Shown here piece after piece: positions 3,822 through 17,322 of a stretch of DNA of 64,000 nucleotides (position 1 is the first letter of the stretch; the number at the start of each line of letters is the position of its first letter). The stretch is from a phage. The stretch is taken from the NCBI GenBank assembly GCA_014435945.1, contig GCA_014435945.1_4088.1; one strand, written 5' to 3'. Below the pieces are notes generated by a model, which saw only the letters and a list, made by a program, of their open reading frames with translations, was not told where the DNA came from and did not search any database. The position numbers and the translations under genes are program-made.

Positions 3822-3827
3822 AAGTAT

Positions 3828-3886: not shown

Positions 3887-3910
3887 ACACCAATAAAAGG
3901 AAACAAAATT

Positions 3911-4183: not shown

Positions 4184-4371
4184 CAGTTGAAGAAGTTAAA
4201 AAAGTACTGGCAGTACTACGCTATCATAATCATTGCAAGGTGAAGAATGATCCTGATTATCTCGATTCATCCCTGGAAGAGGATACACTACAAGCAATAA
4301 GCCATATGCAAAAAATGCTTAAGCGTATGACCGAAAAGAATAGGCCGGACTATATCGGAAATAAAATTTAA
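4180..4371 (+). CDS. small hypothetical protein (63 aa)
   Basis: ATGA start/stop overlap with upstream gene. Confidence 0.55.
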   Translation: MTVEEVKKVLAVLRYHNHCKVKNDPDYLDSSLEEDTLQAISHMQKMLKRMTEKNRPDYIGNKI

Positions 4372-4378
4372 AAAGTAC

Positions 4379-4440
4379 TTGCATTGTAGTTAGATTAACG
4401 TATAATGTTTTATATCGAGAGGGGGAAATGGTTTCCCCTC
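4379..4440 (+). promoter_or_regulatory. sigma70-like early promoter (class B) plus leader stem-loop
   Basis: TTGCAT 4379-4384, 16-nt spacer, TATAAT 4401-4406; bulged G-rich hairpin 4419-4440. Confidence 0.7.
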
Positions 4441-4458
4441 AAGTCCAGGAGATACACA

Positions 4459-4722
4459 ATGAACACTATCGAAATCACTATCAATGCACACGTATACGAC
4501 AACGTAGTACTGCAAACTACTATGACCGCCAATGATACCAGTACTTTGCGGAATACTGTTATTAGTGCTGTATGTGCCGCTATCGGTGATGTCGCCCTGG
4601 AAAATGCAAAACACGTAAACGATGGTTTCACTATGTGCAAACGTGATAACGCAAAACATATCATCGTGGAAGGTTACGGCGGTGTAGAATTTAATGTTTA
4701 TATGAAAAAAGTACTTGCATAA
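4459..4722 (+). CDS. hypothetical protein (87 aa)
   Basis: ATG 4459 after CAGGAG; track ORF 4405 begins inside the leader. Confidence 0.65.
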   Translation: MNTIEITINAHVYDNVVLQTTMTANDTSTLRNTVISAVCAAIGDVALENAKHVNDGFTMCKRDNAKHIIVEGYGGVEFNVYMKKVLA

Positions 4723-4771
4723 TAACTAAAACAAAGTATAATGTTTTGCATAGGGGGAGATATCCTCCCCC
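4715..4771 (+). promoter_or_regulatory. sigma70-like early promoter (class B) plus leader stem-loop
   Basis: TTGCAT 4715-4720, TATAAT 4737-4742; hairpin GGGGGAG-atatc-CTCCCCC 4753-4771. Confidence 0.7.
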
Positions 4772-4789
4772 ACTAAAAGGAGTAATAAA

Positions 4790-5014
4790 ATGGCTAACTT
4801 TGATGAACTGATGCGGGAAGTAGCTAACCTGGCAGAAGAGAAGAAATCATTCGATTCTATCTATAACACCGCTCACCGTGATTCAGTACTGGCATGTAAC
4901 CAGGATCAAAAAGATGAACTAATCGCCACCTATCATGAAGCATGGAAGTACTACCGACAATGGGAGAAAGAAGAAAGTGAGTCTACCATTGACGGCCTCA
5001 ATAATCTAATCTAA
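4790..5014 (+). CDS. small hypothetical protein (74 aa)
   Basis: ATG 4790 after AAAAGGAG RBS. Confidence 0.7.
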   Translation: MANFDELMREVANLAEEKKSFDSIYNTAHRDSVLACNQDQKDELIATYHEAWKYYRQWEKEESESTIDGLNNLI

Positions 5015-5033
5015 AAGTTTTATTTCAGTACTA

Positions 5034-5063
5034 TTGACATAGCTTGATAGTACTGATGTAATA
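5034..5063 (+). promoter_or_regulatory. candidate sigma70-like promoter
   Basis: TTGACA 5034-5039 with imperfect -10 (TGTAAT/TAATAA) 17-19 nt downstream. Confidence 0.4.
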
Positions 5064-5090
5064 ACTTTACTAACTACAAGGGGAAACATA

Positions 5091-5348
5091 ATGGATCAAT
5101 TCACACAATATCGGGTAAATCCTCAAGCTATGGCCTACGTAGAAGACCATAAAACGTTACCAGTACTGCAACCAGTTAAAGGCCATATCTATCGTGCAAT
5201 GTCGTGGTGTACGGCCCAGGATGGCTATAAAACCGTAGCCGTGGGTATGTATTGCGGTAATGGTGAATGGTTTGATCCAAATAATCCGGTAGCCATTGAC
5301 AGTACTGAAAAAATGAAATGGGCCGACTACATCGAAGATATTTCATAA
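5091..5348 (+). CDS. hypothetical protein (85 aa)
   Basis: ATG 5091 after AAGGGGAAA. Confidence 0.65.
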   Translation: MDQFTQYRVNPQAMAYVEDHKTLPVLQPVKGHIYRAMSWCTAQDGYKTVAVGMYCGNGEWFDPNNPVAIDSTEKMKWADYIEDIS

Positions 5349-5355
5349 AAACTAT

Positions 5356-5416
5356 TTGACAGTACTAACCAGTAATGTATAATGTTTTACATAGAGCGGG
5401 GGAATAGTTCTCCCGC
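5356..5416 (+). promoter_or_regulatory. sigma70-like early promoter plus leader stem-loop
   Basis: TTGACA 5356-5361, 16-nt spacer, TATAAT 5378-5383; hairpin GCGGGGGAA-tag-TTCTCCCGC 5396-5416. Confidence 0.7.
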
Positions 5417-5438
5417 CAATAGTTTGGAGTAAAACATT

Positions 5439-5639
5439 ATGTCTATCGCTATCGCCCTGGTTGAAGTACTGAAAGAAGCTAAAGCCAACCTTATCGATGT
5501 ACAGATTAAGGAATTGCAAAACGGCTTAATCGGCTGTACTTGTACCGCTGGTGGAGCGGCAGACTATCGAGAACACGAATCACTCGAATCACTGGTTCGG
5601 TATCTTACCATGATCGTTGATGATTGGAGAATCATCTAA
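5439..5639 (+). CDS. small hypothetical protein (66 aa)
   Basis: ATG 5439 after TGGAG. Confidence 0.65.
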   Translation: MSIAIALVEVLKEAKANLIDVQIKELQNGLIGCTCTAGGAADYREHESLESLVRYLTMIVDDWRII

Positions 5640-5654
5640 CAAAAAAGAATAAAA

Positions 5655-5688
5655 AAAGGGATTGACTCAGGTCAGTCCCTTTGCTATT
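5655..5688 (+). terminator. hairpin terminator, second copy of the duplicated intergenic module
   Basis: Same 12-bp stem as 2896-2923 with loop tcag; conserved box at 5712-5735. Confidence 0.6.
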
Positions 5689-5804
5689 ATATACGCATAG
5701 ACAAAAACTAGCCCACAGGGTGCATAAGTGTATCCAAAATATATAGTTAATAACGGTGAGTAACTATCTGCTGGTGGAGTGAAAACTATTAATAAAAAAA
5801 AGTA

Positions 5805-5833
5805 TTGACAAAGTATATCAGTACTGCAATAAT
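5805..5833 (+). promoter_or_regulatory. sigma70-like early promoter (class A variant)
   Basis: TTGACA 5805-5810, 17-nt spacer, TGcAATAAT at 5825-5833. Confidence 0.6.
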
Positions 5834-5886
5834 GTATCTCGTAGGGCGGCAATGGTGCGACGGCCCACAAAGTTAGGAGATTCAAA

Positions 5887-6219
5887 ATGACTACTTCAAT
5901 CGCTATCGTTAAAGCTTTCATCCGTACTAATGTTTCCTCTGTATTCATCGACGGCCTCGACCGTAACGTAGAATACTCAATCATTATCGCACAAACGGCA
6001 AACGGTTCTCGGTACATCCTGAATGATAGTGAAGCAAATCACTACTACTTCACTAAAGCCACTGGCTTTAAACGCATCGATGCTGATGTAGTATACGCTA
6101 AGATGAATAAGCTGGTAGACAAGATTAACGCGAAAGGTACTATCGATTTACAGTACTGGACCGAAACCGATCCAGAATATGGATCTCACCGCTACCTGAA
6201 TCCAGGTATTAAAATGTAA
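5887..6219 (+). CDS. hypothetical protein (110 aa)
   Basis: ATG 5887 after AGGAG. Confidence 0.7.
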   Translation: MTTSIAIVKAFIRTNVSSVFIDGLDRNVEYSIIIAQTANGSRYILNDSEANHYYFTKATGFKRIDADVVYAKMNKLVDKINAKGTIDLQYWTETDPEYGSHRYLNPGIKM

Positions 6220-6226
6220 AAAGTAC

Positions 6227-6289
6227 TTGCATAGTACTTAGATTCATGTATAATGTTTTACATAGAGAGGGGGAAATGGTTCTCCCTCC
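6227..6289 (+). promoter_or_regulatory. sigma70-like early promoter (class B) plus leader stem-loop
   Basis: TTGCAT 6227-6232, 16-nt spacer, TATAAT 6249-6254; G-rich hairpin about 6267-6289. Confidence 0.7.
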
Positions 6290-6308
6290 TAAATTAAGGA
6301 GTTTTATC

Positions 6309-6710
6309 ATGACCTTCTCAATCACTTCCTTCGCTGACGTTTTAGTACTGGCTCGGACTTTTGGTAAAGATGCACTGGAGTACGCTGTAAGTAATGGCAC
6401 TATCCAACCGGAACAGTGCCGCATCATTGGAAACTGCAAACGTTGGGCGGTATCCAATACTATTGCACTGGAAAACTTCAACGATGGCAACAATGAATAT
6501 TCTGTTGATGTAGTATTCGAAGCCGTAGACCTGGGCGGTATCTATAACACTAACCTGAATGATGTGCGTATCGTTCGCACTGGCTTCGGTGCTTATGATG
6601 TATCTATCCGTGAAGCTATGGACAAGGGATACATTAGCAAGGACTTACTTGCTCACATCATGCAGCTATGGACGGAACGTAACGAAGCACGTACTATCTT
6701 AGGGCTGTAA
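6309..6710 (+). CDS. hypothetical protein (133 aa)
   Basis: ATG 6309 after AAGGAG; track ORF 6246 begins inside promoter/leader. Confidence 0.65.
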   Translation: MTFSITSFADVLVLARTFGKDALEYAVSNGTIQPEQCRIIGNCKRWAVSNTIALENFNDGNNEYSVDVVFEAVDLGGIYNTNLNDVRIVRTGFGAYDVSIREAMDKGYISKDLLAHIMQLWTERNEARTILGL

Positions 6711-6734
6711 GCAATACACATCACCAAACATCAT

Positions 6735-6754
6735 AGGCCGCTCTCTAGCGGCCT
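6735..6754 (+). other. stem-loop without U-tract
   Basis: GGCCGC-tctcta-GCGGCC palindrome after stop of 6309-6710. Confidence 0.35.
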
Positions 6755-6778
6755 TAACTATATCAGGAGTACATACAC

Positions 6779-6988
6779 ATGATCTATACAGTATACAACG
6801 TTCTAGGCACTATTGCAGGCGTACATGATAACGTCGATAGTGCTATGCGTACAGTACTGCAACAGGTTCCACTAAAGCCTAAGACCATTAAGCAGATGAC
6901 AGCACGACTAACCAGGGCGACGGCTGGCGTGGAAGTATGGCAGGACTATGGGGATACACAGATAATCGTAAGCGTAACGAAGGATTAA
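6779..6988 (+). CDS. small hypothetical protein (69 aa)
   Basis: ATG 6779 after CAGGAG. Confidence 0.65.
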   Translation: MIYTVYNVLGTIAGVHDNVDSAMRTVLQQVPLKPKTIKQMTARLTRATAGVEVWQDYGDTQIIVSVTKD

Positions 6989-7134
6989 TGCGTAAAGGGA
7001 TCTAGTACTGATTCAGAAAAAAGTCAAGGCGTTTTTAAAATTATGCGTTAAAAAAATGCATAGGTAATCCCTTGACTTTTTTGAAATAAAAGGGATTGGA
7101 CTATGGCAAAATGCGTAGGGGGCTAAAGGGCGGG
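6987..7134 (+). repeat. iteron-like direct repeats in a 250-bp intergenic region
   Basis: ATGCGTA(A/G)(A/G)GGG at about 6988 and 7109 with a variant near 7044; TAAAGGG core recurs near 6994, 7088, 7124, 7153. Confidence 0.4.
7017..7082 (+). other. 13-bp perfect inverted repeat (long hairpin, terminator-like)
   Basis: AAAAAAGTCAAGG 7017-7029 pairs with CCTTGACTTTTTT 7070-7082 across a 40-nt loop. Confidence 0.45.
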
Positions 7135-7179
7135 TAACCTTAGCGACTTCGATAAAGGGGTATTACTTATAAAATGTTA

Positions 7180-7207
7180 TTGACTTTTTATATGAATCGT
7201 ATATTAT
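7180..7207 (+). promoter_or_regulatory. candidate sigma70-like promoter for the F1 array
   Basis: TTGACT 7180-7185, 16-nt spacer, TATTAT 7202-7207. Confidence 0.45.
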
Positions 7208-7237
7208 TGGATTGATATTATTTTTAATGGAGTCCCT

Positions 7238-7435
7238 ATGCGTATTTTAACTCAAGAAGAGCACAACCACACACTCATATCCAACATGGCATATATCCTA
7301 CATATGTCACATATCCGTGGTATTGCATATAAGCGTGAATTGGTTATGAAACTTTTCATAGGAACTAACTATCAAGAAAAGTATATCGAACTATACTTAC
7401 AAGAATTACGAAGGGACATAAAAGGTAGACTATGA
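7238..7435 (+). CDS. F1 small paralog protein (65 aa)
   Basis: F1 member; C-terminal motif FIGTNYQEKYIELYL; first gene of tandem array. Confidence 0.65.
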   Translation: MRILTQEEHNHTLISNMAYILHMSHIRGIAYKRELVMKLFIGTNYQEKYIELYLQELRRDIKGRL

Positions 7436-7632
7436 AAATGCGTATTTTAAATAAAGAAGATTATCAAGAACTGTTACGTAAAAACATGGTAAAGATTTAT
7501 AACACAGACACAAACTTAGAACGAATTGAGTTATACCTTTTGATTACATTGGGAACAAGCTATCAGGGAAGATGGGTGATTCAATATATGGATGCATTGA
7601 AAAATGAAATATTATCCACGAGGAAACAATGA
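7432..7632 (+). CDS. F1 small paralog protein
   Basis: F1 motif LGTSYQGRWV; ATGA overlap with upstream stop. Confidence 0.65.
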   Translation: MKMRILNKEDYQELLRKNMVKIYNTDTNLERIELYLLITLGTSYQGRWVIQYMDALKNEILSTRKQ

Positions 7633-7838
7633 AAACTATAACACGAACCCAATCATACGGTCTTATCTTGAGATACATGGACTTAATGTTGGATATCAGA
7701 AAAGACCTTCCTAAAACTGCAATTGAAGTTGCAAGAGCAGAGATCCGCATGTTGGCTGTACTGAACACAAACCATCAGGAAGAGTATGTTGACGATTGGA
7801 TTCGATTTTTAATAGAAGATATTAAGAGGAAACTATGA
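7629..7838 (+). CDS. F1 small paralog protein
   Basis: F1 motif LNTNHQEEYV; ATGA overlap. Confidence 0.65.
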   Translation: MKTITRTQSYGLILRYMDLMLDIRKDLPKTAIEVARAEIRMLAVLNTNHQEEYVDDWIRFLIEDIKRKL

Positions 7839-8047
7839 TTTTTTTAACACCAGAAGAATATAAGATACGTTTTGTTTCTGTCCAGAATAAAATCTTAATT
7901 ATATACAATTCAAATGCAGACCTTAACTTATCAAGGGTATTAGAAAAAGATTTACTTATGGGTGCATTTTTGGATACAGACTTTCAGGTGTATTATGTAG
8001 GGGAATACTTAATTGCACTCCAGAATTACATTAAGAGTAAACTATGA
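7835..8047 (+). CDS. F1 small paralog protein
   Basis: F1 motif FLDTDFQVYYV; close paralog of 8044-8256. Confidence 0.65.
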   Translation: MIFLTPEEYKIRFVSVQNKILIIYNSNADLNLSRVLEKDLLMGAFLDTDFQVYYVGEYLIALQNYIKSKL

Positions 8048-8256
8048 ATAGCATTAACTCAAATCTATATACCGAACGCGTCGCTGCCAGACAACTTGAA
8101 ATTCTCATAGTATATGAAGAGACTGATGATTTAAACTTAGCATTAGTATTGGAAAATGATATACTATTGGGTGCATTCCTCGGCACAGACTATCAGGAGC
8201 ACTTCTTGAATGAGTATATAATTGCACTCCAGAAATACATTAAGAGCAAACTATGA
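8044..8256 (+). CDS. F1 small paralog protein
   Basis: F1 motif FLGTDYQEHFL; ATGA overlap. Confidence 0.65.
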   Translation: MNSINSNLYTERVAARQLEILIVYEETDDLNLALVLENDILLGAFLGTDYQEHFLNEYIIALQKYIKSKL

Positions 8257-8471
8257 AACATTTAAGTAATTACGAGAAGAATAAAATTATCGTTGCTGCA
8301 ATAAACAAATATTTTACACTTCCTCACACAGAAGGTTTATGTGTAAGGGAACACAGGATAAACACCACCGATATACGCATGATGGCTGTACTGGGGACGA
8401 ACTTTCAGGAAGAGTATGTTGTTGCACACATAGTTGCCCTCACTGATTTAATAAGGGACAAATGCAAATGA
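8253..8471 (+). CDS. F1 small paralog protein
   Basis: F1 motif VLGTNFQEEYV; N-term MKHLSNYEK. Confidence 0.65.
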   Translation: MKHLSNYEKNKIIVAAINKYFTLPHTEGLCVREHRINTTDIRMMAVLGTNFQEEYVVAHIVALTDLIRDKCK

Positions 8472-8686
8472 AAGACATAAACACTCAAGAATATCTTAAA
8501 CGATTAGAACAAGGGAAGAACTTTAGACTTCAAGTTTACGATGATGAATCACTAACATCCAATGAAAAGTATGTTATACTAACAGACTCAACATTAATAC
8601 CATTTGTAGGAACAAACTATCAGGAGGTTATGGTAGACAACCACATCACGGCCTTAAAATGTCATGTCAGGGATTTAGGTAAATGA
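8468..8686 (+). CDS. F1 small paralog protein
   Basis: F1 motif FVGTNYQEVMV; start set at ATGA overlap (track 8462). Confidence 0.6.
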   Translation: MKDINTQEYLKRLEQGKNFRLQVYDDESLTSNEKYVILTDSTLIPFVGTNYQEVMVDNHITALKCHVRDLGK

Positions 8687-8940
8687 AACACTTAACTGAT
8701 GATGAATTTGAAACTATAATTCGTAAACTAACCCCCATCACAAGGATAGTCTACGGTGACCCCAGCCTTACATGGAACCAAATGCGAGCTAAAGTTAATG
8801 AGCTATGGTTGCTGTACTTTATGGGGACTCAATATCAAGATAAGTTTTGCACAGAATATATCGAACAATTAACGAATGTTATACAGGATAAACTAGATGA
8901 TTATTTGCTCACAAAACATGAAGACTTTATCAGGAGTTGA
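8683..8940 (+). CDS. F1 small paralog protein
   Basis: F1 motif FMGTQYQDKF; N-term MKHLTDDEF. Confidence 0.65.
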   Translation: MKHLTDDEFETIIRKLTPITRIVYGDPSLTWNQMRAKVNELWLLYFMGTQYQDKFCTEYIEQLTNVIQDKLDDYLLTKHEDFIRS

Positions 8941-9169
8941 GTATCAAACTGCCCTATTCTCTTTAATCCATACCCTTAGAAAAAACAATGCCTTACATGG
9001 TGCACCTGAAGTGGATGTTATCAACGGTGAACTTTATCTTATGAAATTCATTGGAACAAACTATCAAGATCTGTTCATTCAACGATACTTATCAGCATTA
9101 AGAAACCAAATCCAATATAAAACCATCAAGGCCAAAAAAGAATGGAATAAACAATGCGACACAGACTAA
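8918..9169 (+). CDS. F1 small paralog protein
   Basis: F1 motif FIGTNYQDLFI; start chosen at MKTLSGVEY by family N-terminal consensus (track 8897). Confidence 0.55.
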   Translation: MKTLSGVEYQTALFSLIHTLRKNNALHGAPEVDVINGELYLMKFIGTNYQDLFIQRYLSALRNQIQYKTIKAKKEWNKQCDTD

Positions 9170-9405
9170 ATCACAAAATGTATTGTAAACTATTACAGAC
9201 ACTGGCACAGAAACACTATGACACGGTATCTGAAATATTACCCTATGATATCATGCGTTTACTTCACTGTGAGGCCGAGATGCTTGTACTGATGACAGGC
9301 ACAGATAAAAAAGCAATTGCCAAATCAATAGATATGTTCATCGAAGCACAATGTCAACACATTAGAACCGAGATATGGAGGCGAGAGAATGATAACCCTA
9401 AATGA
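9154..9405 (+). CDS. F1 small paralog protein (divergent)
   Basis: Degenerate F1 motif LMTGTDKKAIA; same size and position in array. Confidence 0.55.
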   Translation: MRHRLNHKMYCKLLQTLAQKHYDTVSEILPYDIMRLLHCEAEMLVLMTGTDKKAIAKSIDMFIEAQCQHIRTEIWRRENDNPK

Positions 9406-9604
9406 GTATCAGTATCATTGGAGGTTACAAGCTATAAGAAGGAAAGTTGTTAGTATTTCTTTAGACAAGTCTATTGCACAAGAGGACAAATGTGTTATAA
9501 TAGCTGAAATGAAGTTGGGTGCTTTCGTAGGAACAAACTATCAAAACATCTACACTGACGTATTGTTAAGTGCCTTACGTAACAAGGTGATATCAAAAGA
9601 ATGA
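9389..9604 (+). CDS. F1 small paralog protein
   Basis: F1 motif FVGTNYQNIY; N-term MITLNEYQY. Confidence 0.65.
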   Translation: MITLNEYQYHWRLQAIRRKVVSISLDKSIAQEDKCVIIAEMKLGAFVGTNYQNIYTDVLLSALRNKVISKE

Positions 9605-9819
9605 GAAAATTACAAGGCTTTGAATACATCAGACTCCTGAAAACATGTGCCAACAGAAGAGTAAAGATTCAATCTGATAAGAGCATCCCTGCCAACCTAA
9701 AACATGCAATGATAGCTGAACTCTATGCAGGGGCACTCATAGGGACAAACTATCAACAAATGTATATAGACATGTGGGTTGATGCATTAGTCAAGGAGAT
9801 CCAAAGTAAATGCAAATGA
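9601..9819 (+). CDS. F1 small paralog protein
   Basis: F1 motif LIGTNYQQMYI; ATGA overlap. Confidence 0.65.
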   Translation: MRKLQGFEYIRLLKTCANRRVKIQSDKSIPANLKHAMIAELYAGALIGTNYQQMYIDMWVDALVKEIQSKCK

Positions 9820-10028
9820 TTAATTTAAGTAAAGATGAATATTATGATCGTCTTGCAAAAACTTATCCAGCACGTAACGCCGTTTATAATAGTAACATTA
9901 TTGAACGCTCAAAGAAGTTGATTGTAGTGAATGAGATTAAGATGCTTTCAGTCTTAGGAACAAACTATCAAGAGAATGCTGTACTGTTGTTAATTGATGC
10001 CCTCCAGAGAGAGATACAAAGTAAATGA
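9816..10028 (+). CDS. F1 small paralog protein
   Basis: F1 motif VLGTNYQENAV; start at ATGA overlap (track 9810). Confidence 0.6.
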   Translation: MINLSKDEYYDRLAKTYPARNAVYNSNIIERSKKLIVVNEIKMLSVLGTNYQENAVLLLIDALQREIQSK

Positions 10029-10261
10029 TTAATTTATCTTTCCATGAATATCAAAAACGTTTAAATGCATCAAGGGATATAAGGATTCAAATCTTCAATA
10101 ACAAAAAATTGAAACCTGACACCAGAAGAATCAAAATAATAGAAGCAGAGTTATGCAACTTCCTGGGGACGAACCATCAGGAAGGTAAGATAAAAAACTA
10201 TCTTAGAGAACTAATGAATTGTATCGAAAATAAATGCGATGCTTTGGAGAATAAAAAATGA
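10025..10261 (+). CDS. F1 small paralog protein
   Basis: F1 motif FLGTNHQEGKI; N-term MINLSFHEY. Confidence 0.65.
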   Translation: MINLSFHEYQKRLNASRDIRIQIFNNKKLKPDTRRIKIIEAELCNFLGTNHQEGKIKNYLRELMNCIENKCDALENKK

Positions 10262-10515
10262 TCAATTTAAGTAAAGATGAATATACCGAGCGTATGACAA
10301 AAATCTCACCTAAACGTAATGCAATCTATTACAGCCAAGAAATTCCACACAGTAAGAAGATGATTATGTATCGTGAGTTAAAGATGGGTATGTTCTTAGG
10401 AACAAACTATCAAGAACCAGAAGTAAATCGCTTAATAAATGAATTACTCATGGAAATCAGAGGTAAGCTGTACTTTCATCAAATGACCCAGCCACTGAGG
10501 TGTACTAAGAAATGA
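10258..10515 (+). CDS. F1 small paralog protein
   Basis: F1 motif FLGTNYQEPEV; N-term MINLSKDEY. Confidence 0.65.
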   Translation: MINLSKDEYTERMTKISPKRNAIYYSQEIPHSKKMIMYRELKMGMFLGTNYQEPEVNRLINELLMEIRGKLYFHQMTQPLRCTKK

Positions 10516-10727
10516 TCAACATCACATTGCAAGAAAGATTCATCCGAATCAACTATGCAATTACCAAATTAGATGCTACTATAGACAACCAAAGTTTACC
10601 GTTCAAAACAAGAATGATATTAGAGTGCGAAGCCAAGTTAGGTGTACTGTTAGGGACGCAACACCAACAACGATATGTGGAAATCTGGATTGATCTTTTA
10701 ACCCAAAATGCACATGAGAGAATGTAA
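10512..10727 (+). CDS. F1 small paralog protein
   Basis: F1 motif LLGTQHQQRYV; ATGA overlap. Confidence 0.65.
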   Translation: MINITLQERFIRINYAITKLDATIDNQSLPFKTRMILECEAKLGVLLGTQHQQRYVEIWIDLLTQNAHERM

Positions 10728-10739
10728 ATGCAAAAGGAA

Positions 10740-10958
10740 ATGATATACTTAACACATGATGAATTTCAAGAGAAGATGTTAAAAGCCAATAACATTACTC
10801 TTAAGTTCGTTCCAAATCAATCAATATATGAAATGTCTGCGAATGTATTGTTTCAGAAGCTACCATACGTTCTTGGAACTGATAAACAAGAATTTATGGT
10901 TCAAAATATGATTGAGCATCTTGCAATGAGTATTATGGAAAAAGTAAATGCAAAATGA
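10740..10958 (+). CDS. F1 small paralog protein
   Basis: F1 motif VLGTDKQEFMV; start MIYLTHDEF by consensus (track 10728). Confidence 0.55.
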   Translation: MIYLTHDEFQEKMLKANNITLKFVPNQSIYEMSANVLFQKLPYVLGTDKQEFMVQNMIEHLAMSIMEKVNAK

Positions 10959-10959
10959 A

Positions 10960-11190
10960 ATGAAATACTTAACATATAATGAATACGTCGAGAGATTAGT
11001 TAGTGCCAAGAGATATGCCAATCAACTTCCTAATGATCCAAACCAAACCCCAGAGGAAAAGAATGCGGAAGCTCTATTCCAAGCACTACCATACCTTCTT
11101 GGAACTGATAGGCAGGAGTATCACGTTGAACGTATAATTAAATCTCTTAAAATCACTATTAAGGAAAAAGTAAATGCAAAAGCAAAATGA
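10960..11190 (+). CDS. F1 small paralog protein
   Basis: F1 motif LLGTDRQEYHV; start MKYLTYNEY (track 10948). Confidence 0.55.
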   Translation: MKYLTYNEYVERLVSAKRYANQLPNDPNQTPEEKNAEALFQALPYLLGTDRQEYHVERIIKSLKITIKEKVNAKAK

Positions 11191-11191
11191 A

Positions 11192-11437
11192 ATGAAATAC
11201 TTAACAGACGATGAGTTAAAAGAACGATTAATTAAATCCAGAAAACTTACAAATCAACTTCCAATCGACACAAACAAGTCACATGCCGAAAGGAGTGCAG
11301 AAGTTTTATACATTCAACTCCTGTACTTTCTTGGAACTGACAGACAAGAGTATTACATTGAAAGTATGCTTCGATATCTTAAATTCTCTATAAAGGAAAA
11401 GGTACATGCTCAAGAATTTAAAAATCCTAACAGTTAA
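11192..11437 (+). CDS. F1 small paralog protein
   Basis: F1 motif FLGTDRQEYYI; start MKYLTDDEL (track 11174). Confidence 0.55.
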   Translation: MKYLTDDELKERLIKSRKLTNQLPIDTNKSHAERSAEVLYIQLLYFLGTDRQEYYIESMLRYLKFSIKEKVHAQEFKNPNS

Positions 11438-11648
11438 TGAATATCATAAGATTGTAATGAAAACTAATAGTGAAATTTCTAAAAAATCAAACCCAAAGTA
11501 CATACTGGAACACACATTCGAAGAACGTCAATTAGCTCTAGTTGAAGCAAAACTTCTTGCACTCCTAGGAACAAACTATCAGGAAGAATACATCAGAAAA
11601 CTAATATACCTTTTAACTAAACACATCAGGAAAAGAAAAAAAGCATGA
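11406..11648 (+). CDS. F1 small paralog protein
   Basis: F1 motif LLGTNYQEEYI; 32-nt overlap with upstream gene, start uncertain. Confidence 0.55.
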   Translation: MLKNLKILTVNEYHKIVMKTNSEISKKSNPKYILEHTFEERQLALVEAKLLALLGTNYQEEYIRKLIYLLTKHIRKRKKA

Positions 11649-11875
11649 AACACTTGACAGATGATGAACATGGGCTTATAGTAATGGATGTAATCAACAT
11701 CGAATACAAAAAGTTGATACGCTACCGTTGTTATGAAGATAAGCAACTCGTTCTAGCAGAACAGAAGTTGTTTCGACTCTTAAACACAAACTTCCAAGCA
11801 CAATACGAAGAATCGTATTTGTACCTACTGTCGAGGAAAGCAAAAAGAGATTATGAAAATTTTAAACCACAGTGA
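11645..11875 (+). CDS. F1 small paralog protein
   Basis: F1 motif LLNTNFQAQYE; N-term MKHLTDDEH; ATGA overlap. Confidence 0.65.
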   Translation: MKHLTDDEHGLIVMDVINIEYKKLIRYRCYEDKQLVLAEQKLFRLLNTNFQAQYEESYLYLLSRKAKRDYENFKPQ

Positions 11876-12068
11876 ACAAACAGAATTGTTAATCTTTAAT
11901 ACAAGTAAATTCTTAAACATAACATTGTCTGATATAGATGAGGATGAAAAAGAGTTACTTAGAGCAGATTTAAGAGTTCTTTTATATGTTGGAACTAACT
12001 TCCAAGAGCAATTCGTTGAGGACTACATCGATGAACTTAAAGAATCTGTACTGAGAACATGCAAATGA
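11853..12068 (+). CDS. F1 small paralog protein
   Basis: F1 motif YVGTNFQEQFV; N-term MKILNHSEQ. Confidence 0.6.
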   Translation: MKILNHSEQTELLIFNTSKFLNITLSDIDEDEKELLRADLRVLLYVGTNFQEQFVEDYIDELKESVLRTCK

Positions 12069-12292
12069 AAATCCTTTCACCAAGTGAATACCACGAACTA
12101 TTAAGTAGTTTAATTCTAAAATTGTATATAGCAAAGACCACAGATTTACCTGATGAAGAAAAAAATATTCTAATGAGTGAAATCTATGTTAATTCTACCC
12201 TAGGGACTAACTATCAAGAATGTAATATTAATGATTACATCAATGAACTAAAAAGGTTTATCCAATGCAAATGCGAATCATTACCGAAGTAG
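12065..12292 (+). CDS. F1 small paralog protein
   Basis: F1 motif TLGTNYQECNI; start at ATGA overlap; near-duplicate of next gene. Confidence 0.6.
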   Translation: MKILSPSEYHELLSSLILKLYIAKTTDLPDEEKNILMSEIYVNSTLGTNYQECNINDYINELKRFIQCKCESLPK

Positions 12293-12507
12293 AATACCTA
12301 ACAATCATAAATGGACTGTTTTCGAAGTTATTTGCCATTAACACATCAAAACTTCCAGATACTGATAAAATTATTAAGTTAAATGAAATCTACGTTCAAG
12401 CTACTCTAGGAACAAACTATCAAGAAGCCAATGTGTATAATTACATTAATACACTCAAAAGGGTAATACAATTAAAATGCACAGACAGCACACACACAAA
12501 CCCCTAG
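12271..12507 (+). CDS. F1 small paralog protein
   Basis: F1 motif TLGTNYQEANV; start MRIITEVEY by analogy to 12065 (track 12265). Confidence 0.55.
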   Translation: MRIITEVEYLTIINGLFSKLFAINTSKLPDTDKIIKLNEIYVQATLGTNYQEANVYNYINTLKRVIQLKCTDSTHTNP

Positions 12508-12707
12508 GAACAGCAGAATACATTGAACTAATGGCTGCAAACTTCTCATCCTTTAAGAAACTGATGCAAGAATCAAATAATGATTTAGAATATCATATCA
12601 AAAGTTCAGATTTAAGATTACTACTCACTCTAGGAACAGACAGTCAGTACAAATTCGTACAGGAGCATATTAGAGCACTTTTAAATGGCATCAGGGATAA
12701 ACTATGA
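12477..12707 (+). CDS. F1 small paralog protein
   Basis: F1 motif TLGTDSQYKFV. Confidence 0.6.
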   Translation: MHRQHTHKPLGTAEYIELMAANFSSFKKLMQESNNDLEYHIKSSDLRLLLTLGTDSQYKFVQEHIRALLNGIRDKL

Positions 12708-12919
12708 AGGAAATATCAAATCAAGAGTACTTGGCACTGTTCAGAAAAAATAGTCAAGAATTTCTGAATATTGATACAAGGACTGATATAAGTGAACTTC
12801 AGAAAAATCTTTTGCGTTCAGAGATGATAGTACTGACACTCTTAGGAACACAGCATCAAGAGAGAACTGTTAATTCACACATAGGTATTCTTATACAGAT
12901 TGTACAGGAAAAGATATGA
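12704..12919 (+). CDS. F1 small paralog protein
   Basis: F1 motif LLGTQHQERTV; N-term MKEISNQEY; ATGA overlap. Confidence 0.65.
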   Translation: MKEISNQEYLALFRKNSQEFLNIDTRTDISELQKNLLRSEMIVLTLLGTQHQERTVNSHIGILIQIVQEKI

Positions 12920-13137
12920 GAATCATAACACAACAAGATATTCTTAAGTTCACAAGGGTTCATGCATCTGAATTTGATGCTATATTATCAAAAAGTTACA
13001 ATGACCCTTATACAGAAGATGTACTCTACAATGAATTATGGGTGTATATACTTTTAGGTACAGATCATCAAGAGCAAGCCGTACAGAAGTATTTGACAGC
13101 TTTACGTGATGCTACAGCTAATGGAGTACATGTTTAA
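12916..13137 (+). CDS. F1 small paralog protein
   Basis: F1 motif LLGTDHQEQAV; ATGA overlap. Confidence 0.65.
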   Translation: MRIITQQDILKFTRVHASEFDAILSKSYNDPYTEDVLYNELWVYILLGTDHQEQAVQKYLTALRDATANGVHV

Positions 13138-13138
13138 T

Positions 13139-13390
13139 ATGAAAGTACTGACAGAATTAGAAATGTATCATAGATTTAACAAGTACTATCATTTACTTAA
13201 ACCTATACAGAGGATTAAGTGTCCCTTTGTAGTGAAACAGGTATTAATTTATGAGCATAAGTTATTTGTATCATTAGGTACGAATGAACAAGAGTATTAT
13301 TTGAAGTTGTACTTAATTACATTAATAGATTTAATTCACTATAAAACCACACAATCCAAACAAGCTAATAAAGAGAAATATGAAAACTAA
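13139..13390 (+). CDS. F1 small paralog protein
   Basis: F1 motif SLGTNEQEYYL; start ATG 13139 just after upstream stop (track 13106). Confidence 0.55.
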   Translation: MKVLTELEMYHRFNKYYHLLKPIQRIKCPFVVKQVLIYEHKLFVSLGTNEQEYYLKLYLITLIDLIHYKTTQSKQANKEKYEN

Positions 13391-13718
13391 TATACAACTC
13401 AAGGTTTATAAATCATTTGCAAGTACATACATCAAATGCTATACATGTAACTATGTAATGGACTACAAAGGTAAGCCATTTACACTTACTTACGATAATA
13501 CAAGAGGTTTTTATATATCTTTTGCTGATTACAAATATAACATATACGAACACATTGACATTGAAGATTTAAGTACTTTATCACCAGAGGAATACTTTCA
13601 GGAATCGTTAGTATGGGATTTGGAGTTTCCTATGCCATTAGTACATAAAATGGTAGTCCAAATGAAAGAAGCTAAACCGGAGTTTAACGGTTATGAAGAA
13701 TACACAATTGAGTATTAA
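13380..13718 (+). CDS. F2 paralog protein (112 aa)
   Basis: F2 module EEYFQESLVWD followed by LVHKMVVQMKE; sits inside the F1 array. Confidence 0.6.
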   Translation: MKTNIQLKVYKSFASTYIKCYTCNYVMDYKGKPFTLTYDNTRGFYISFADYKYNIYEHIDIEDLSTLSPEEYFQESLVWDLEFPMPLVHKMVVQMKEAKPEFNGYEEYTIEY

Positions 13719-13934
13719 ATGAAAAGATTATCATACGAAGATTACACCAATCTTATCAGGACTTTACAACCAGAAATTAAAAGAATTAATTCTCTTCCTA
13801 TATCTAATGAAGAATGTTCAGTACTGAAAGATGAGTTAATCTTAAAACACACAGTAGGAACAAACTATCAAGCAGATAGTGTTCGATATTTAATTTGGGG
13901 GTTGATGTGTCAAATAAAGTCCAGACAAGCTTGA
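13719..13934 (+). CDS. F1 small paralog protein
   Basis: F1 motif TVGTNYQADSV; N-term MKRLSYEDY. Confidence 0.65.
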   Translation: MKRLSYEDYTNLIRTLQPEIKRINSLPISNEECSVLKDELILKHTVGTNYQADSVRYLIWGLMCQIKSRQA

Positions 13935-13960
13935 CAGTACTCTTCATTACTGCTATAGTA
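13931..13960 (+). promoter_or_regulatory. sigma70-like promoter (class C)
   Basis: TTGACAgtactc 13931-13936, 18-nt spacer, TATAGT 13955-13960; resembles 1693 and 1969. Confidence 0.5.
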
Positions 13961-13989
13961 CACTAACGTTAATCATTAGGGTAAAAATT

Positions 13990-14235
13990 ATGTTAAATTT
14001 TTTAAATTTCCTTATCGTCTTGTGTATTGTTCTTGGGATTGCACCATTTGTATTGTATTTCATGGATTCAGATGAAATGCAGAAGATGAATTGCACAAGG
14101 ACAGGACAGAGTAGAGAAGAGACGATTCTTATGCCTGTTACGGTTATTGTTAACAACATGCCCATTACAAACATGGTCCCTACCCTAACGACAACGTACC
14201 AGTACTCTTGTACAGACGGAGAGAGGTGGAGATAA
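13990..14235 (+). CDS. small membrane protein (81 aa)
   Basis: Hydrophobic N-terminus LNFLNFLIVLCIVLGIAPFVLYF; follows promoter. Confidence 0.55.
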   Translation: MLNFLNFLIVLCIVLGIAPFVLYFMDSDEMQKMNCTRTGQSREETILMPVTVIVNNMPITNMVPTLTTTYQYSCTDGERWR

Positions 14236-14558
14236 TGTGTAAGTTCAATTGTATTGTACGTAAGAATTCATGTTACATTGTAGTAGCTGATTTTAATACA
14301 GGTTCTGGGTTGAAGATATTTGAGTACAGAAAATGCAATAATTCTTTTCATTGGAAATTGGGTGCAAGAAAAACAAAAACAATTTCAGTACCGAATTTAT
14401 GTTCTATCTCTGAAGAAGAAGAGTTTCAGTACTTGTTAGTACATGATGATTCTTTAGGATTTACATTCGAAGACATGAAGGAAGTACAAAAGCAGATGAT
14501 TGCACATTGTCATCTTCCAAAGAATTTTGTTCAACGCGTATGTGAATTCTACATATAA
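14235..14558 (+). CDS. F2 paralog protein
   Basis: F2 module EEEFQYLLVHD; TAATG overlap; GGTGGAGA RBS (track 14208). Confidence 0.6.
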   Translation: MCKFNCIVRKNSCYIVVADFNTGSGLKIFEYRKCNNSFHWKLGARKTKTISVPNLCSISEEEEFQYLLVHDDSLGFTFEDMKEVQKQMIAHCHLPKNFVQRVCEFYI

Positions 14559-14567
14559 GAGAAGAAT

Positions 14568-14879
14568 ATGAAATTTAATATAGCAAAAACATCGAGTATA
14601 TGTATTTTTGGTTATGCAGAAGAGTTAGGTGATATTGACATTCTTTTGTACAAAAAGGATGGTGTTATGCATTTCAAGTACCAGGATGAAGAGGCAGACA
14701 ATTATCTTTTACCTAATTTAGTACAAATGCAGGAAGAGGAATTATTCCAGTACAGCTTAATATACGACATTGATATTTGCACGATGCCAGTATTAATTAG
14801 TATTCAAAAAGTGATGCTCGATATGTATGATAAGCTAATACAAGGTATGTCAGGGAGGATCATTGAAATTGACATATAA
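14568..14879 (+). CDS. F2 paralog protein
   Basis: F2 module EELFQYSLIYD then ISIQKVM. Confidence 0.6.
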   Translation: MKFNIAKTSSICIFGYAEELGDIDILLYKKDGVMHFKYQDEEADNYLLPNLVQMQEEELFQYSLIYDIDICTMPVLISIQKVMLDMYDKLIQGMSGRIIEIDI

Positions 14880-14907
14880 GAATATACCTAAAGGAGATGC
14901 AATATAA

Positions 14908-15159
14908 ATGTACAAAAAAATAAACCGTTATTTGTATGCATCAAAGTACAGGGATTTTTGTTTACGAGGGGGAGAGGAAGATTTTGCTCTGAGGTTATCG
15001 GAATTTAATATGTTATTTTATCTTGGGTCAAAAGAACAAGAAGATACAGTACAGAAATTTCTCAATCATCTTGTACAAAAAATTAATATGCAAATTTTGA
15101 TGCTTAAGTTACAGGATGAGATAAATGAATATGAATCCAGAAATAGTTCAGGATCTTAA
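14908..15159 (+). CDS. F1-like small protein
   Basis: F1-like motif YLGSKEQEDTV in C-terminal half. Confidence 0.55.
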   Translation: MYKKINRYLYASKYRDFCLRGGEEDFALRLSEFNMLFYLGSKEQEDTVQKFLNHLVQKINMQILMLKLQDEINEYESRNSSGS

Positions 15160-15514
15160 AAAAGTAATATTTCTTTTGAATACAAGAAGCTCTTTATATA
15201 AGGAATTCAAAGATAATGATGGTTCTTTTAAACCATTATGTATAGAATTCAATGATTTAATTACAGATGCATTGTTTGAATTTTCAGAGAAATATCAAGA
15301 TACCGTGTTTGGTGTTAAGAATGTTATTAGTCCAAGTTCAAGGAAGATAACGTTATCTCATTTTACATTTGACAATAAAGATTTATTCAGTTATAATCCT
15401 AGTACATCTTTATATTTTATTCCTAAAGGAGAAAAGAATAGTCCTATTCATTACGGATGGATTATATCTTATACAATAAATGGAACGGAGTATCCTATCA
15501 AATGGCACGATTAG
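15125..15514 (+). CDS. hypothetical protein (129 aa)
   Basis: Long ORF with 35-nt overlap on upstream gene; AGGATGAG RBS. Confidence 0.5.
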   Translation: MNMNPEIVQDLKKVIFLLNTRSSLYKEFKDNDGSFKPLCIEFNDLITDALFEFSEKYQDTVFGVKNVISPSSRKITLSHFTFDNKDLFSYNPSTSLYFIPKGEKNSPIHYGWIISYTINGTEYPIKWHD

Positions 15515-15654
15515 GGAGTGGAGATTATAATATGAATATATTATTAAGAAATATTAATGCAGATTATTGTGTATGGGTTAAGAATCGAGATATGATGTAT
15601 TATGATTTTTATTTAGATTGTGCCATTAAGCGTTTTTTAAGAGAAGAACATTAA
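15502..15654 (+). CDS. small hypothetical protein
   Basis: In-frame ATG 15502 or 15532 within track ORF 15457-15654; start unresolved. Confidence 0.35.
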   Translation: MARLGSGDYNMNILLRNINADYCVWVKNRDMMYYDFYLDCAIKRFLREEH

Positions 15655-15836
15655 TGAAAGACGTTAATACAAAAGCAATAAATGATTTAAATGATTCTTT
15701 ATTAGTAAGTATCAAGATGTATTACAATATACATTTAAAGGGTGGTATTGATGATTACAATTATTATCTTTCATTAGTTACAATAGAACATTTAAATTAT
15801 ATAGATCATTTATTACATCCAAATCCACCAATTTAA
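15654..15836 (+). CDS. small hypothetical protein (60 aa)
   Basis: ATG at stop of upstream ORF. Confidence 0.5.
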   Translation: MKDVNTKAINDLNDSLLVSIKMYYNIHLKGGIDDYNYYLSLVTIEHLNYIDHLLHPNPPI

Positions 15837-15847
15837 GGAATACCAAT

Positions 15848-16177
15848 ATGAATAAAATTATTTTAGCTCTAACATTTATTTTATCAATGTTCTCTAATAC
15901 AGTACAGGCCGCTGATTATGAAGTATATCAATTTGATTGCAGATTACAAAACAATGATAAAATTGATATATTTTTACATAGCACAGAAATTCCGTATTTG
16001 CAAATTGAGTCCACAAAGTACATTTATTTTGGTGAGAATTCAGTACAGGAATTTTTATTCAAGCACACATCAGAAGATGTAATTGTATCATTACAATACG
16101 TTGATGCATCATTATCGTTAATGCATTTCAAGAACGCAAAAGGTTTAGTTACAGTGCTTAAATGCACAAGGGTATAA
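15848..16177 (+). CDS. predicted secreted/periplasmic protein (109 aa)
   Basis: Signal-peptide-like N-terminus MNKIILALTFILSMFSNTVQA-AD; AAGGAA RBS. Confidence 0.6.
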   Translation: MNKIILALTFILSMFSNTVQAADYEVYQFDCRLQNNDKIDIFLHSTEIPYLQIESTKYIYFGENSVQEFLFKHTSEDVIVSLQYVDASLSLMHFKNAKGLVTVLKCTRV

Positions 16178-16178
16178 T

Positions 16179-16739
16179 ATGAATGATATTGAGTTATTGG
16201 TACATAAGATTTGCACAATATCGTTAGTGCTGAACAATGCGAATACAGTACAGAGTTCCCTTTTAAGAATTAATAAAGTTGGGAGTAGTTTATATTTGGA
16301 AGTAAAAGCTGGTTTTGCAGGTCAGTACAATGATAAAATCAAAGAAGAAGTTAAGGGAAGTGAAGATGCTTTCATTGAGGTTTGTGCAACAGTTGGTTCA
16401 AATCCAATTTCAGTATCACCGTTAATGCGAAATGAAAATTCAGAATTTAATTCCATTTTTGAAGGTTATTTGTGGTATAATGCTGGAGATGATTATTTTA
16501 TATATCAGAATTCCAAAACGGATTACAGTGAAGAAGGTATAAAATTCATTGATCCTTACAATGAAGCAGAAGTATTTCAGACATCCCTAATATACAATGC
16601 AAATCAAATGAAGTATCTTATGTTGTTTAGTACAATGCATTTGAATCCATTGAAAGATAATTTAAAATTTTTCATTCGTTTAGAATTAGTTGATATTGCT
16701 TATGATCTTTTAATGCAAGGATACAGTTATGAAGTATAA
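16179..16739 (+). CDS. F2 paralog protein
   Basis: F2 module AEVFQTSLIYN; C-terminus DLLMQGYSYEV shared with 16816-17322. Confidence 0.6.
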   Translation: MNDIELLVHKICTISLVLNNANTVQSSLLRINKVGSSLYLEVKAGFAGQYNDKIKEEVKGSEDAFIEVCATVGSNPISVSPLMRNENSEFNSIFEGYLWYNAGDDYFIYQNSKTDYSEEGIKFIDPYNEAEVFQTSLIYNANQMKYLMLFSTMHLNPLKDNLKFFIRLELVDIAYDLLMQGYSYEV

Positions 16740-16809
16740 AATGCTTTATACAAAAGATATGATTTATGTTGAATTAGAAGGCAATGACGATGTATCCATC
16801 AATAGGTAA
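16729..16809 (+). pseudogene. truncated remnant of an MKYKMLYT-type F2 gene
   Basis: 26-codon ORF MKYKMLYTKDMIYVELEGNDDVSINR matches N-termini of 17312 and 17644 genes then stops. Confidence 0.5.
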
Positions 16810-16815
16810 TAATAT

Positions 16816-17322
16816 ATGAATGAGATAGAATTATTAGCACACAAGATTAGTACAGTAATGCTTATGCTCAAGAATAATCATTCTATGCATAAGTACATTT
16901 TTATAGGTGATTTACGCATAGAAGATAGATATGATAAATTATCGTTTATGTTTAAAGATGAAAGTAATGCAAAAGTTTGTTTTGCAGCATTTGCCCAAGG
17001 CAATCCAGAACAAGCATCTCCTGTTATATACGAAAATAGTGAAGGGTATTTGTGGGTCAACACAAACGATTATTTCTTTTATGTTTTGAAACAAGATGAT
17101 GAAGTAGAAGCACGAATTGATTTAATTGATATTAGTACAGATTGTAGTGCTGAATTATTTCAGAAATCGTTATTATACAGTCCTCGTCAAATACATTATC
17201 TAAAGTTATTCAGTTCATTGTACGCGAATCCTTTAATTAAGGGTTTTAAATTTTATATCAAAATTCCGCACCTTTCAAACGTTTATGATTTATTAATGCA
17301 AGGATATAGTTATGAAGTATAA
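16816..17322 (+). CDS. F2 paralog protein
   Basis: F2 module AELFQKSLLYS; paralog of 16179-16739. Confidence 0.6.
   Translation: MNEIELLAHKISTVMLMLKNNHSMHKYIFIGDLRIEDRYDKLSFMFKDESNAKVCFAAFAQGNPEQASPVIYENSEGYLWVNTNDYFFYVLKQDDEVEARIDLIDISTDCSAELFQKSLLYSPRQIHYLKLFSSLYANPLIKGFKFYIKIPHLSNVYDLLMQGYSYEV

Follow-up and report, generated by a model that had tools for sequence, protein, structure and literature searches.

Why would a bacteriophage keep dozens of diverged copies of one small gene side by side? This question is raised by a 64,000-nucleotide stretch of phage DNA (contig GCA_014435945.1_4088.1 of assembly GCA_014435945.1; hereafter the window, at its full length), in which 28 consecutive genes and four dispersed relatives encode proteins of typically about 70 amino acids (aa) with a C-terminal motif of the LGTNYQE type. 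Judged from its sequence, the window is that of an Asteriusvirus jumbo coliphage. Positions 7000-14000 match 36 phage records, all of them Escherichia/Salmonella jumbo phages of the PBECO4/121Q group, genus Asteriusvirus, with phage Turkey3 as the closest relative (98.2% identity), and positions 30000-50000 retrieve the same relatives plus weaker Erwinia, Yersinia and Klebsiella matches. The array genes are called 'hypothetical protein' in every annotated record. As detailed below, they form a genuine family, and its most economical reading, to which a probability of roughly 45% can be given, is an early operon of diversified small binding proteins that would serve host takeover or anti-defence.

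Membership was established with profile searches covering all 385 open reading frames (ORFs) of at least 40 aa in the window, on both strands. A hidden Markov model (HMM) built from the 28 array ORFs retrieved exactly 32 window ORFs at E <= 5e-5, and nothing further up to E = 10; the four dispersed ones are those starting at 27936, 13719, 27731 and 14908 (E 2e-14 to 5e-5). Because seeds match their own model by construction, leave-one-out HMMs were also run. They recovered 31 of the 32 members, with E-values from 7e-23 to 8e-7, and no non-family ORF in the window even at E = 100. An enlarged HMM of 118 sequences, including 86 database relatives, again gave exactly 32 window ORFs, the next-best ORF having E = 0.53. 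The initial annotation of this DNA had proposed these 32 members (28 consecutive genes plus those at 13719, 14908, 27731 and 27936) and had named failure to align with a shared profile as what would refute them; all three kinds of model place the members under one profile. Coordinates, sizes (63-94 aa), the N-terminal MKxLTxxEY and the LGTNYQE...IxxLxxxIxxK motif also agree with that description. Two details need correction. The span first given for the array, 7238-13934, does contain it, but also holds a gene of a different family (13380-13718); the unbroken + strand run, made of ORFs of 65-94 aa each in the ORF listing, extends from 7238 to 13390. Moreover, the run does comprise 28 consecutive members, but the motif is not present in every one. 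ORF 9154-9405 lacks NYQE and shows GTDKK followed by a six-residue insertion where GTNYQE is expected; leave-one-out recovers it only with the HMMER filters off (E = 0.0023, over the N-terminal 50 residues). It occupies the same slot in seven of seven related arrays, and an AlphaFold2 model computed with the family alignment as guide reproduces the arrangement of the helices (7-26, 31-46 and 52-80) at lower confidence, with a predicted local distance difference test score (pLDDT) of 81. It is counted as a very divergent family member.

All members lie on the + strand; each is given here with its coordinates, length and leave-one-out E-value and, where indicated, the E-value of its match to PHROG 4148, an entry of unknown function. 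Member 1 (7238..7435, 65 aa, 9e-13), preceded by a GGAG Shine-Dalgarno (SD) sequence, opens the run. Seven genes with ATGA overlaps follow: members 2 (7432..7632, 66 aa, 7e-13), 3 (7629..7838, 69 aa, 4e-15), 4 (7835..8047, 70 aa, 2e-17; 51% identical to member 5), 5 (8044..8256, 70 aa, 2e-15), 6 (8253..8471, 72 aa, 1e-17; PHROG 7e-14), 7 (8468..8686, 72 aa, ORF opening at 8462, 1e-16) and 8 (8683..8940, 85 aa, 2e-19; PHROG 9e-21). Next come member 9 (8918..9169, 83 aa, ORF opening at 8897, 5e-13), the divergent member 10 (9154..9405, 83 aa, missed with default filters) and member 11 (9389..9604, 71 aa, 2e-15). ATGA overlaps resume with members 12 (9601..9819, 72 aa, 2e-17; PHROG 1.5e-19), 13 (9816..10028, 70 aa, ORF opening at 9810, 2e-20; 56% identical to member 15), 14 (10025..10261, 78 aa, 3e-17), 15 (10258..10515, 85 aa, 7e-23; the modelled member) and 16 (10512..10727, 71 aa, 3e-14; cassette-like distribution). 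Members 17 (10740..10958, 72 aa, ORF opening at 10728, 7e-15), 18 (10960..11190, 76 aa, ORF opening at 10948, 3e-16; about 70% identical in DNA to its neighbours), 19 (11192..11437, 81 aa, ORF opening at 11174, 3e-15) and 20 (11406..11648, 80 aa, 2e-16) precede member 21 (11645..11875, 76 aa, ATGA overlap, 2e-9), the acidic member 22 (11853..12068, 71 aa, net charge -7, 2e-20), member 23 (12065..12292, 75 aa, ORF opening at 12059, ATGA overlap, 5e-20) and member 24 (12271..12507, 78 aa, ORF opening at 12265, 2e-20; 49% identical to member 23). Members 25 (12477..12707, 76 aa, 6e-14), 26 (12704..12919, 71 aa, ATGA overlap, 6e-17) and 27 (12916..13137, 73 aa, ATGA overlap, 9e-14) lead to member 28 (13139..13390, 83 aa, ORF opening at 13106, 3e-11), which ends the contiguous run. 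Among the dispersed members, 29 (13719..13934, 71 aa, 1e-13; PHROG 1e-12) is separated from the run by the other-family gene 13380-13718. Member 30 (14908..15159, 83 aa, 8e-7; enlarged HMM 1e-11) has a divergent LGSKEQE and no PHROG match, and member 31 (27731..27958, 75 aa, 4e-8; enlarged HMM 8e-16) has a TTG start in the longest ORF and a divergent VGSNKQD. Member 32 (27936..28127, 63 aa, 8e-15; PHROG 9e-18) stands in tandem with member 31.

What kind of protein do these genes encode? An AlphaFold2 model of member 10258, computed from an alignment of the 32 paralogs, has a pLDDT of 95.3 and a predicted template-modelling score (pTM) of 0.77. It consists of helices 6-15, 17-24 and 31-45 and a long helix 52-77, residue 2 bridging to residue 49. 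In the BFVD set of viral structures, the only matches are other Asteriusvirus members of the family, whose independent models superpose with template-modelling scores of 0.77-0.95 (target-length normalised). Net charge ranges from -7 to +9 and isoelectric point (pI) from 4.4 to 9.9 among the 32 members, none of the 32 shows a cysteine or histidine pattern, and the hydropathy score is negative in 30 of them, hence soluble proteins. The family is therefore predicted to be a soluble four-helix protein of orphan fold. In a set of 60 sequences drawn from three phage lineages, conservation exceeds 80% at G, T, Q and L only, and a hydrophobic periodicity is maintained as well; the remaining positions and the net charge vary widely between paralogs. 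The motif L-[TS]-x-x-E-[YF] lies at the start of helix 1 and G-T-[ND]-x-Q-E at the start of helix 4. Capping boxes are a familiar feature of helix ends, and, read against the secondary-structure string, the two motifs would be mainly turn and helix-capping signals that define the fold.

Database searches give the family a number and a phylogenetic range. PHROG 4148 is matched full-length by seven of the eight members tested (E 4e-26 to 1e-12, profile positions 1-70 or more of 74), the exception being member 14908, and members from phage RaK2 and from metagenomes likewise match it; the entry names the family and carries neither a function nor a description of a tandem array. For all 32 members, Pfam gave no model and PADLOC no family common to the members, no PADLOC or Pfam family being hit by more than one member, and all such hits having E >= 0.001. 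A sequence profile search of the PDB gave a best E of 0.9, and Foldseek against the PDB a best E of 2.4. The N-terminal 'LTKTDYLMRL', which we took to resemble the small four-helix H-NS modulators of the Hha/YmoA family, does not make the family one of them: that relationship was ruled out by hhalign over the ~70-aa domain. A presumed 'G-V-S-Y-Q-T'-like turn of a helix-turn-helix (HTH) of the LacI/XRE/TetR type was rejected in the same way, the hhalign probability against the LacI HTH being 0.5%. This last value bears on the idea that the paralogs are small nucleic-acid-binding regulators or architectural proteins, each recognising its own sites in the nucleic acids (DNA or RNA) of the phage or of the host, much like the zinc-ribbon and Myb-type HTH expansions of phage G. 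Jumbo phages do have lineage-specific expansions of proteins with a putative DNA-binding role (PMC7824862), and the pI reaches 7.8 or more in 19 of the 32 members; on the other hand, no member matches an HTH or other DNA-binding Pfam model, and in 13 members the net charge is zero or negative, down to -7. We consider this explanation unlikely.

The initial annotation had also suggested, as a check, that a family HMM be searched against phage and metagenome proteins. In a profile search of 1.84 billion representative proteins, relatives formed 93 clusters at 50% identity, 51 of which have no close counterpart in the loci examined. All clusters are of short proteins, save one 269-aa form, two of about 120 aa among the matches listed and a few of 90-96 aa, hence a family without cellular homologs. 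Named sources are restricted to Escherichia phages and the Klebsiella phages RaK2, K64-1, KP13-7 and RCIP0023; Salmonella Asteriusvirus phages carry the array too. The 269-aa form corresponds to member 13719, called as one ORF in EC.P1 (338002-338808) and UB (185239-186045; about 13.7-14.5 kb in the window). In it, the family domain is fused to a ~200-aa domain whose relatives are only RaK2/K64-1 ORF380-like hypothetical proteins. RaK2 ORF362 and ORF372 combine the family domain with a C-terminal extension. None of the fusion forms (269 aa in EC.P1/UB, 115-122 aa in RaK2 or metagenomes) gives an annotated partner domain. As a side point, many members stand in the databases under the name 'hypothetical protein [Escherichia coli]', on contigs 343-360 kb long. 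Each such contig is a complete Asteriusvirus genome within a bacterial assembly, in agreement with reports that genome data of bacteria contain lytic phage genomes (PMC12768965).

Are the copies recent? Neighbours such as 7835/8044, 12065/12271 and 10740/10960/11192 had been described as near-identical, and as signs of ongoing duplication. The comparison gives a different picture. Protein identity between paralogs of the window has a median of 23% and a maximum of 56% (9810 against 10258); the pairs 7835/8044, 10948/11174 and 12059/12265 share 49-51%, and even the most similar copies reach no more than about 70% at the DNA level, which speaks against a recent repeat. In seven other genomes the maximum lies between 46 and 69%, and no pair exceeds 69% in the eight genomes examined; near-identical tandem copies, the mark of a 'genomic accordion', are absent, and the proposal of ongoing duplication fails. 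Most of the diversification would be old, since distances within and between lineages are alike: identity is 0.21-0.22 between lineages and 0.22-0.24 within them, with nearest neighbours mixed between lineages, a dating that is rough for sequences so short. In RaK2, a 49-kb segment carries groups of two or three members, at least 12 in all, and a 9-kb metagenomic contig from an uncultured relative has 15 in a row and two more.

Turnover is nevertheless visible within the genus. The seven related arrays hold 25-31 members, with orthologs in conserved order that nevertheless form a mosaic. The counterpart of member 10512 shares 97% identity in Turkey3 and 90-93% in PBECO4, 121Q and SD-15, as against only 35% in fEgEco12, vB_Ec-M-J and ph0011, and member 8462 (8468..8686) has no ortholog in vB_Ec-M-J, PBECO4, 121Q or SD-15. 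Single members are thus replaced or lost between strains in a cassette-like manner. For the same genome pairs, nucleotide identity is 82-87% in the array and 90-97% in the adjacent part of the terminal repeat. The orthologs are under purifying selection: the synonymous rate (dS) exceeds the nonsynonymous rate (dN) in every genome comparison, and the pooled dN/dS is 0.35-0.45 over seven genomes, close to the values of 0.28-0.36 for flanking accessory genes. By class of alignment column, dN/dS is 0.20 for the scaffold and 0.45 for the surface; the latter value being below 1, the own surface of each paralog is also constrained. It could still be argued that the array consists of evolutionary remnants or of annotation artefacts, that is, repeated DNA that happens to be open or functionless selfish duplicates, given that all members are annotated as hypothetical and that no experimental data exist on them. 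This is very improbable, and already disfavoured by the excess of dS over dN, by an ortholog order kept across phages that differ by up to ~18% in array DNA, by a fold predicted with high confidence, by the presence of SD sites and by DNA copies too divergent (~70% identity) for a recent repeat. The locus lends itself well to studying by what means, and for what reason, a phage retains dozens of anciently diverged copies under purifying selection.

The arrangement of the genes raises the question of their expression. The 6.15-kb array contains no intergenic gap longer than 12 nt. Its 27 junctions comprise 16 ATGA overlaps, seven overlaps of 16-32 nt, three 1-nt spacers and one 12-nt spacer. 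Hence, the earlier statement that almost every gene starts on the stop of the previous one applies to 16 of the 27 junctions and not to the seven longer overlaps and four spacers. The overlapping start of the next gene even encodes several C-termini, ...K-L-stop being AAA-CTA-TGA and ...K-stop being AAA-TGA. SD pairing at the 28 starts has a mean energy of -4.4 kcal/mol, versus -1.7 kcal/mol at random positions of the array. Upstream, a putative sigma70-like promoter (TTGACT-N16-TATTAT, 7180..7207, + strand, 10 of 12 consensus matches) lies 31 nt 5' of the first array gene. Six aligned genomes share this site (the window, vB_Ec-M-J, Turkey3, fEgEco12, ph0011 and 121Q); PBECO4 has an inserted gene at this place and carries a different site, TTGACA-N17-TATGAT. 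No convincing terminator was found at the end of the block. A single coupled transcript from ~7180, as the initial annotation implied, would be compatible with the same-strand, gap-free layout, the conserved promoter and the SD sites. Taken together, these features would fit an early, translationally coupled operon driven by the host polymerase.

Such coupling might alternatively keep the stoichiometry of one or a few hetero-oligomeric helical assemblies of which the paralogs would be subunits. The gap-free run with its ATGA junctions would suit this explanation, as would the long amphipathic C-terminal helix with its a/d-like hydrophobic spacing and the invariant G-T-x-x-Q, which may provide a common interface. 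It is made quite unlikely by the loss or replacement of single members between close phages, where copy number varies from 25 to 31, by the small scattered clusters that are all RaK2 has, by a monomer model that is already self-consistent (pTM 0.77) and by the high heterogeneity of charge.

The timing of expression can be approached from the position of the array. In phage vB_Ec-M-J (OQ718158), the annotated direct terminal repeat (DTR), 1..21525, ends at window position ~7140. The DTR of fEgEco12, 20,993 bp long and confirmed by PhageTerm and restriction digests (PMC13070987), ends at the same window point. With the right boundary of the left ~21-kb DTR thus mapped to ~7140, the first array gene lies about 100 bp into unique sequence. 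A scan for perfect sigma70 consensus promoters (TTGACA-N16-18-TATAAT) found nine in the window, versus 0.13 expected, all on the + strand: 211-238, 482-509, 912-940, 3334-3361, 3828-3855, 5356-5383, 15369-15397, 30495-30524 and 47287-47315. Six of the nine (TTGACA-N16/17-TATAAT) are in the part of the DTR just 5' of the array, each in an intergenic gap before a + strand gene. The spacer is AAGTAT(C/A)T(T/C)AGTACTG in four of the nine, a sign that the phage may have a class of strong early promoters of its own. In the related jumbo phage PA5oct, the terminal-repeat genes belong to the early class, and infection is rifampicin-sensitive and needs the host RNA polymerase (PMC7318152). Finally, the virion proteins of RaK2 map to gene clusters devoid of RaK2 family members. 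Early expression of the array is proposed because of these five points, namely the adjacency of the DTR, the conserved promoter, the nine consensus promoters, the early DTR genes of PA5oct and the RaK2 virion clusters without the family.

On these grounds, the reading as an early operon of host-directed binding proteins can be worded as a mechanism. The host sigma70 RNA polymerase would transcribe the block early from the promoter at 7180 into one mRNA with coupled translation, and roughly equal amounts of some 28 different small proteins would be made in the opening minutes of the infection. All would have the same helical scaffold, and each would use its own surface to bind another host macromolecule, which it would thereby block or redirect. 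The paralogs may instead bind different variants of one polymorphic target, such as defence-system components. The battery would be kept by birth-and-death evolution and cassette exchange. The distinction between scaffold and surface is drawn because the model is confident, the BFVD models superpose, conservation is limited to G, T, Q and L, and charge is widely spread. Turnover resembling that of an arms race is proposed because of the 25-31 copies, the replacement of cassettes, an array more diverged than the DTR and the 93 clusters.

Several observations weigh against this reading. Neither a target nor a phenotype nor expression data are on record for any of the members, and literature searches found no transcriptome, proteome or toxicity data for any Asteriusvirus; the timing of transcription is extrapolated from PA5oct, a distant relative, by analogy. 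Promoter-like sites in the array region are not above their frequency in shuffled sequence. The Pfam, PADLOC, PDB and Foldseek searches gave no similarity to a known anti-defence or host-shutoff protein. Pervasive positive selection is not seen, dN/dS staying below 1 even at surface columns. Lastly, the invariant G-T-x-x-Q, including its Gln, may have a function common to the paralogs and not serve structure alone. An extension of this last point is a modular adaptor library, in which the G-T-x-x-Q turn would dock all paralogs on one machine (a host protease, RNA polymerase, the ribosome or a phage enzyme), and the client would differ from paralog to paralog through some 44 variable surface positions. 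With such a library, which we regard as doubtful, one operon would simultaneously neutralise dozens of host factors or polymorphic immune proteins, or direct them to other targets; it would be a new-fold, bacterial-virus counterpart of the adaptor and host-range multigene families of eukaryotic giant viruses.

How does the array compare with known systems? Its nearest functional analogues are small early proteins encoded at phage genome termini. The host-takeover module of phage SPO1 consists of such proteins, which bind the host RNA polymerase and ClpC (PMC6873191), and in Kayvirus small early genes are located in the terminal repeat (PMC9241854). As in SPO1, Kayvirus and PA5oct, the array is made of small, mostly orphan genes at or next to a long terminal repeat, with strong host-type promoters and good ribosome-binding sites. 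The location, promoters and ribosome-binding sites typical of SPO1 are all found here (about 100 bp after the DTR, six perfect promoters upstream, -4.4 versus -1.7 kcal/mol). However, the SPO1 module comprises 26 unrelated proteins in several operons, whereas the array comprises 28 paralogs of a single fold in one gap-free run just outside the repeat; no relationship of sequence or fold between the family and SPO1 proteins was found.

Large paralog expansions are also known from other giant phages. Phage G has about 35 zinc-ribbon copies along with Myb-type HTH proteins, proposed to be transcription factors (PMC7824862), about 10% of the proteins of RaK2 are paralogues (PMC3622015) and 22 ORFs of phage CBB are paralogs (PMC5259590). 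The array resembles the expansions of phage G and RaK2 in having dozens of copies of a small domain in one giant phage genome. It differs from those of phage G in that the family is all-helical, with an unrecognised fold and without metal ligands or a DNA-binding signature. Its contiguous coupled arrangement is not described for the phage G and RaK2 expansions in PMC7824862 and PMC3622015. Literature searches on paralogs, tandem arrays and transcriptomes of Asteriusvirus and RaK2 returned no paper that describes the array or deals with its place at the repeat boundary, its fold or how it evolved. The family had been called highly unusual for its size in one locus. Its scale supports this, but the same array is found in 36 records, the uncultured relative has 15 members in a row, RaK2 at least 12, and phage G about 35 copies of its own domain. 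The sequences are publicly available, and PHROG lists the family under a number; what stands out is the scale, the gap-free coupling and the orphan fold, and the locus is stronger as an experimental target than as a conceptual surprise.

A further parallel, in evolutionary style, is offered by eukaryotic viruses. The MGF110/360 genes of African swine fever virus and the host-range families of poxviruses are diverged paralogs near genome ends that turn over between strains, with a presumed anti-defence role. The array likewise has a terminal or sub-terminal position and many diverged paralogs that are gained, lost or replaced between strains. Unlike these families, with which it has no homology, it belongs to a virus with a bacterial host, its members are 3-6 times smaller and, with closest copies at ~70% in DNA, it bears no sign of recent 'accordion' amplification.

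The array is followed by a second paralog family, of 103-206 aa proteins with an EE-x-FQ-x-SL motif (phrog_13866 and relatives), within 13380-41635. An iterative HMM started from three seeds collected at least 40 ORFs on the + strand; direct phmmer links join groups of 16 and 11 of them, the rest being connected by the profile only, with possible profile drift. Examples are 13380-13718, 14208-14558, 14568-14879, 16179-16739, 25126-25614, 30558-31040 and 31037-31519, all on the + strand. With an hhalign probability of 0.15%, a relationship between the LGTNYQE and EE-x-FQ families was ruled out. The region of this second family also contains the four dispersed LGTNYQE members, and the products of the second family are possible variable partners. 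This would suit the proposal that the array serves phage-internal affairs or conflict between phages (superinfection exclusion, modulators of phage enzymes), with one paralog per variable phage partner. The cassette-like strain variation is in line with it, as is the confinement of the family to Rak2-like phages among the sources of the profile search; location and promoter type equally fit classical host-directed early genes, and we would place only a small weight on it.

The LGTNYQE family amounts to about 5% of the genes of the phage (32 of roughly 600-670, totals taken from related phages), and both expansions together occupy most of the first ~35 kb past the terminal repeat. If the members are early host-directed binders, they would constitute a natural library of about 90 sequence types (50% clusters) with small, confidently predicted folds, which could be used to find host vulnerabilities or mechanisms of immune evasion in E. 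coli, Salmonella and Klebsiella. Asteriusvirus phages are under development for therapy, and more than 70% of their genes are unannotated.

The DTR part upstream of the array shows other features. A 38-nt repeat, AAAGGGATTGACTC(C/A)GGTCAGTCCCTTTGCTATTATAT, is present at 2896-2933 and 5655-5692. It forms a 12-bp hairpin, the stem of which holds a TTGACT -35 box and is followed by a TG-extended TATTAT -10 box; to judge from this layout, the repeat might act both as a terminator and as a promoter. Closer to the array, and still just within the DTR, positions 7067-7098 form a conserved hairpin, AATCCCTT...AAGGGATT, and a G-rich stretch, GCGTAGGGGGCTAAAGGGCGGGTAACC (within 7067-7140), ends at the DTR boundary itself; the two are candidates for a packaging or terminus-generation signal. 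The gene at ~2800-3380 (18020-18604 in Turkey3) is labelled 'serine/threonine-protein kinase PknA' in the Turkey3 record, a label given here as it stands in that record.

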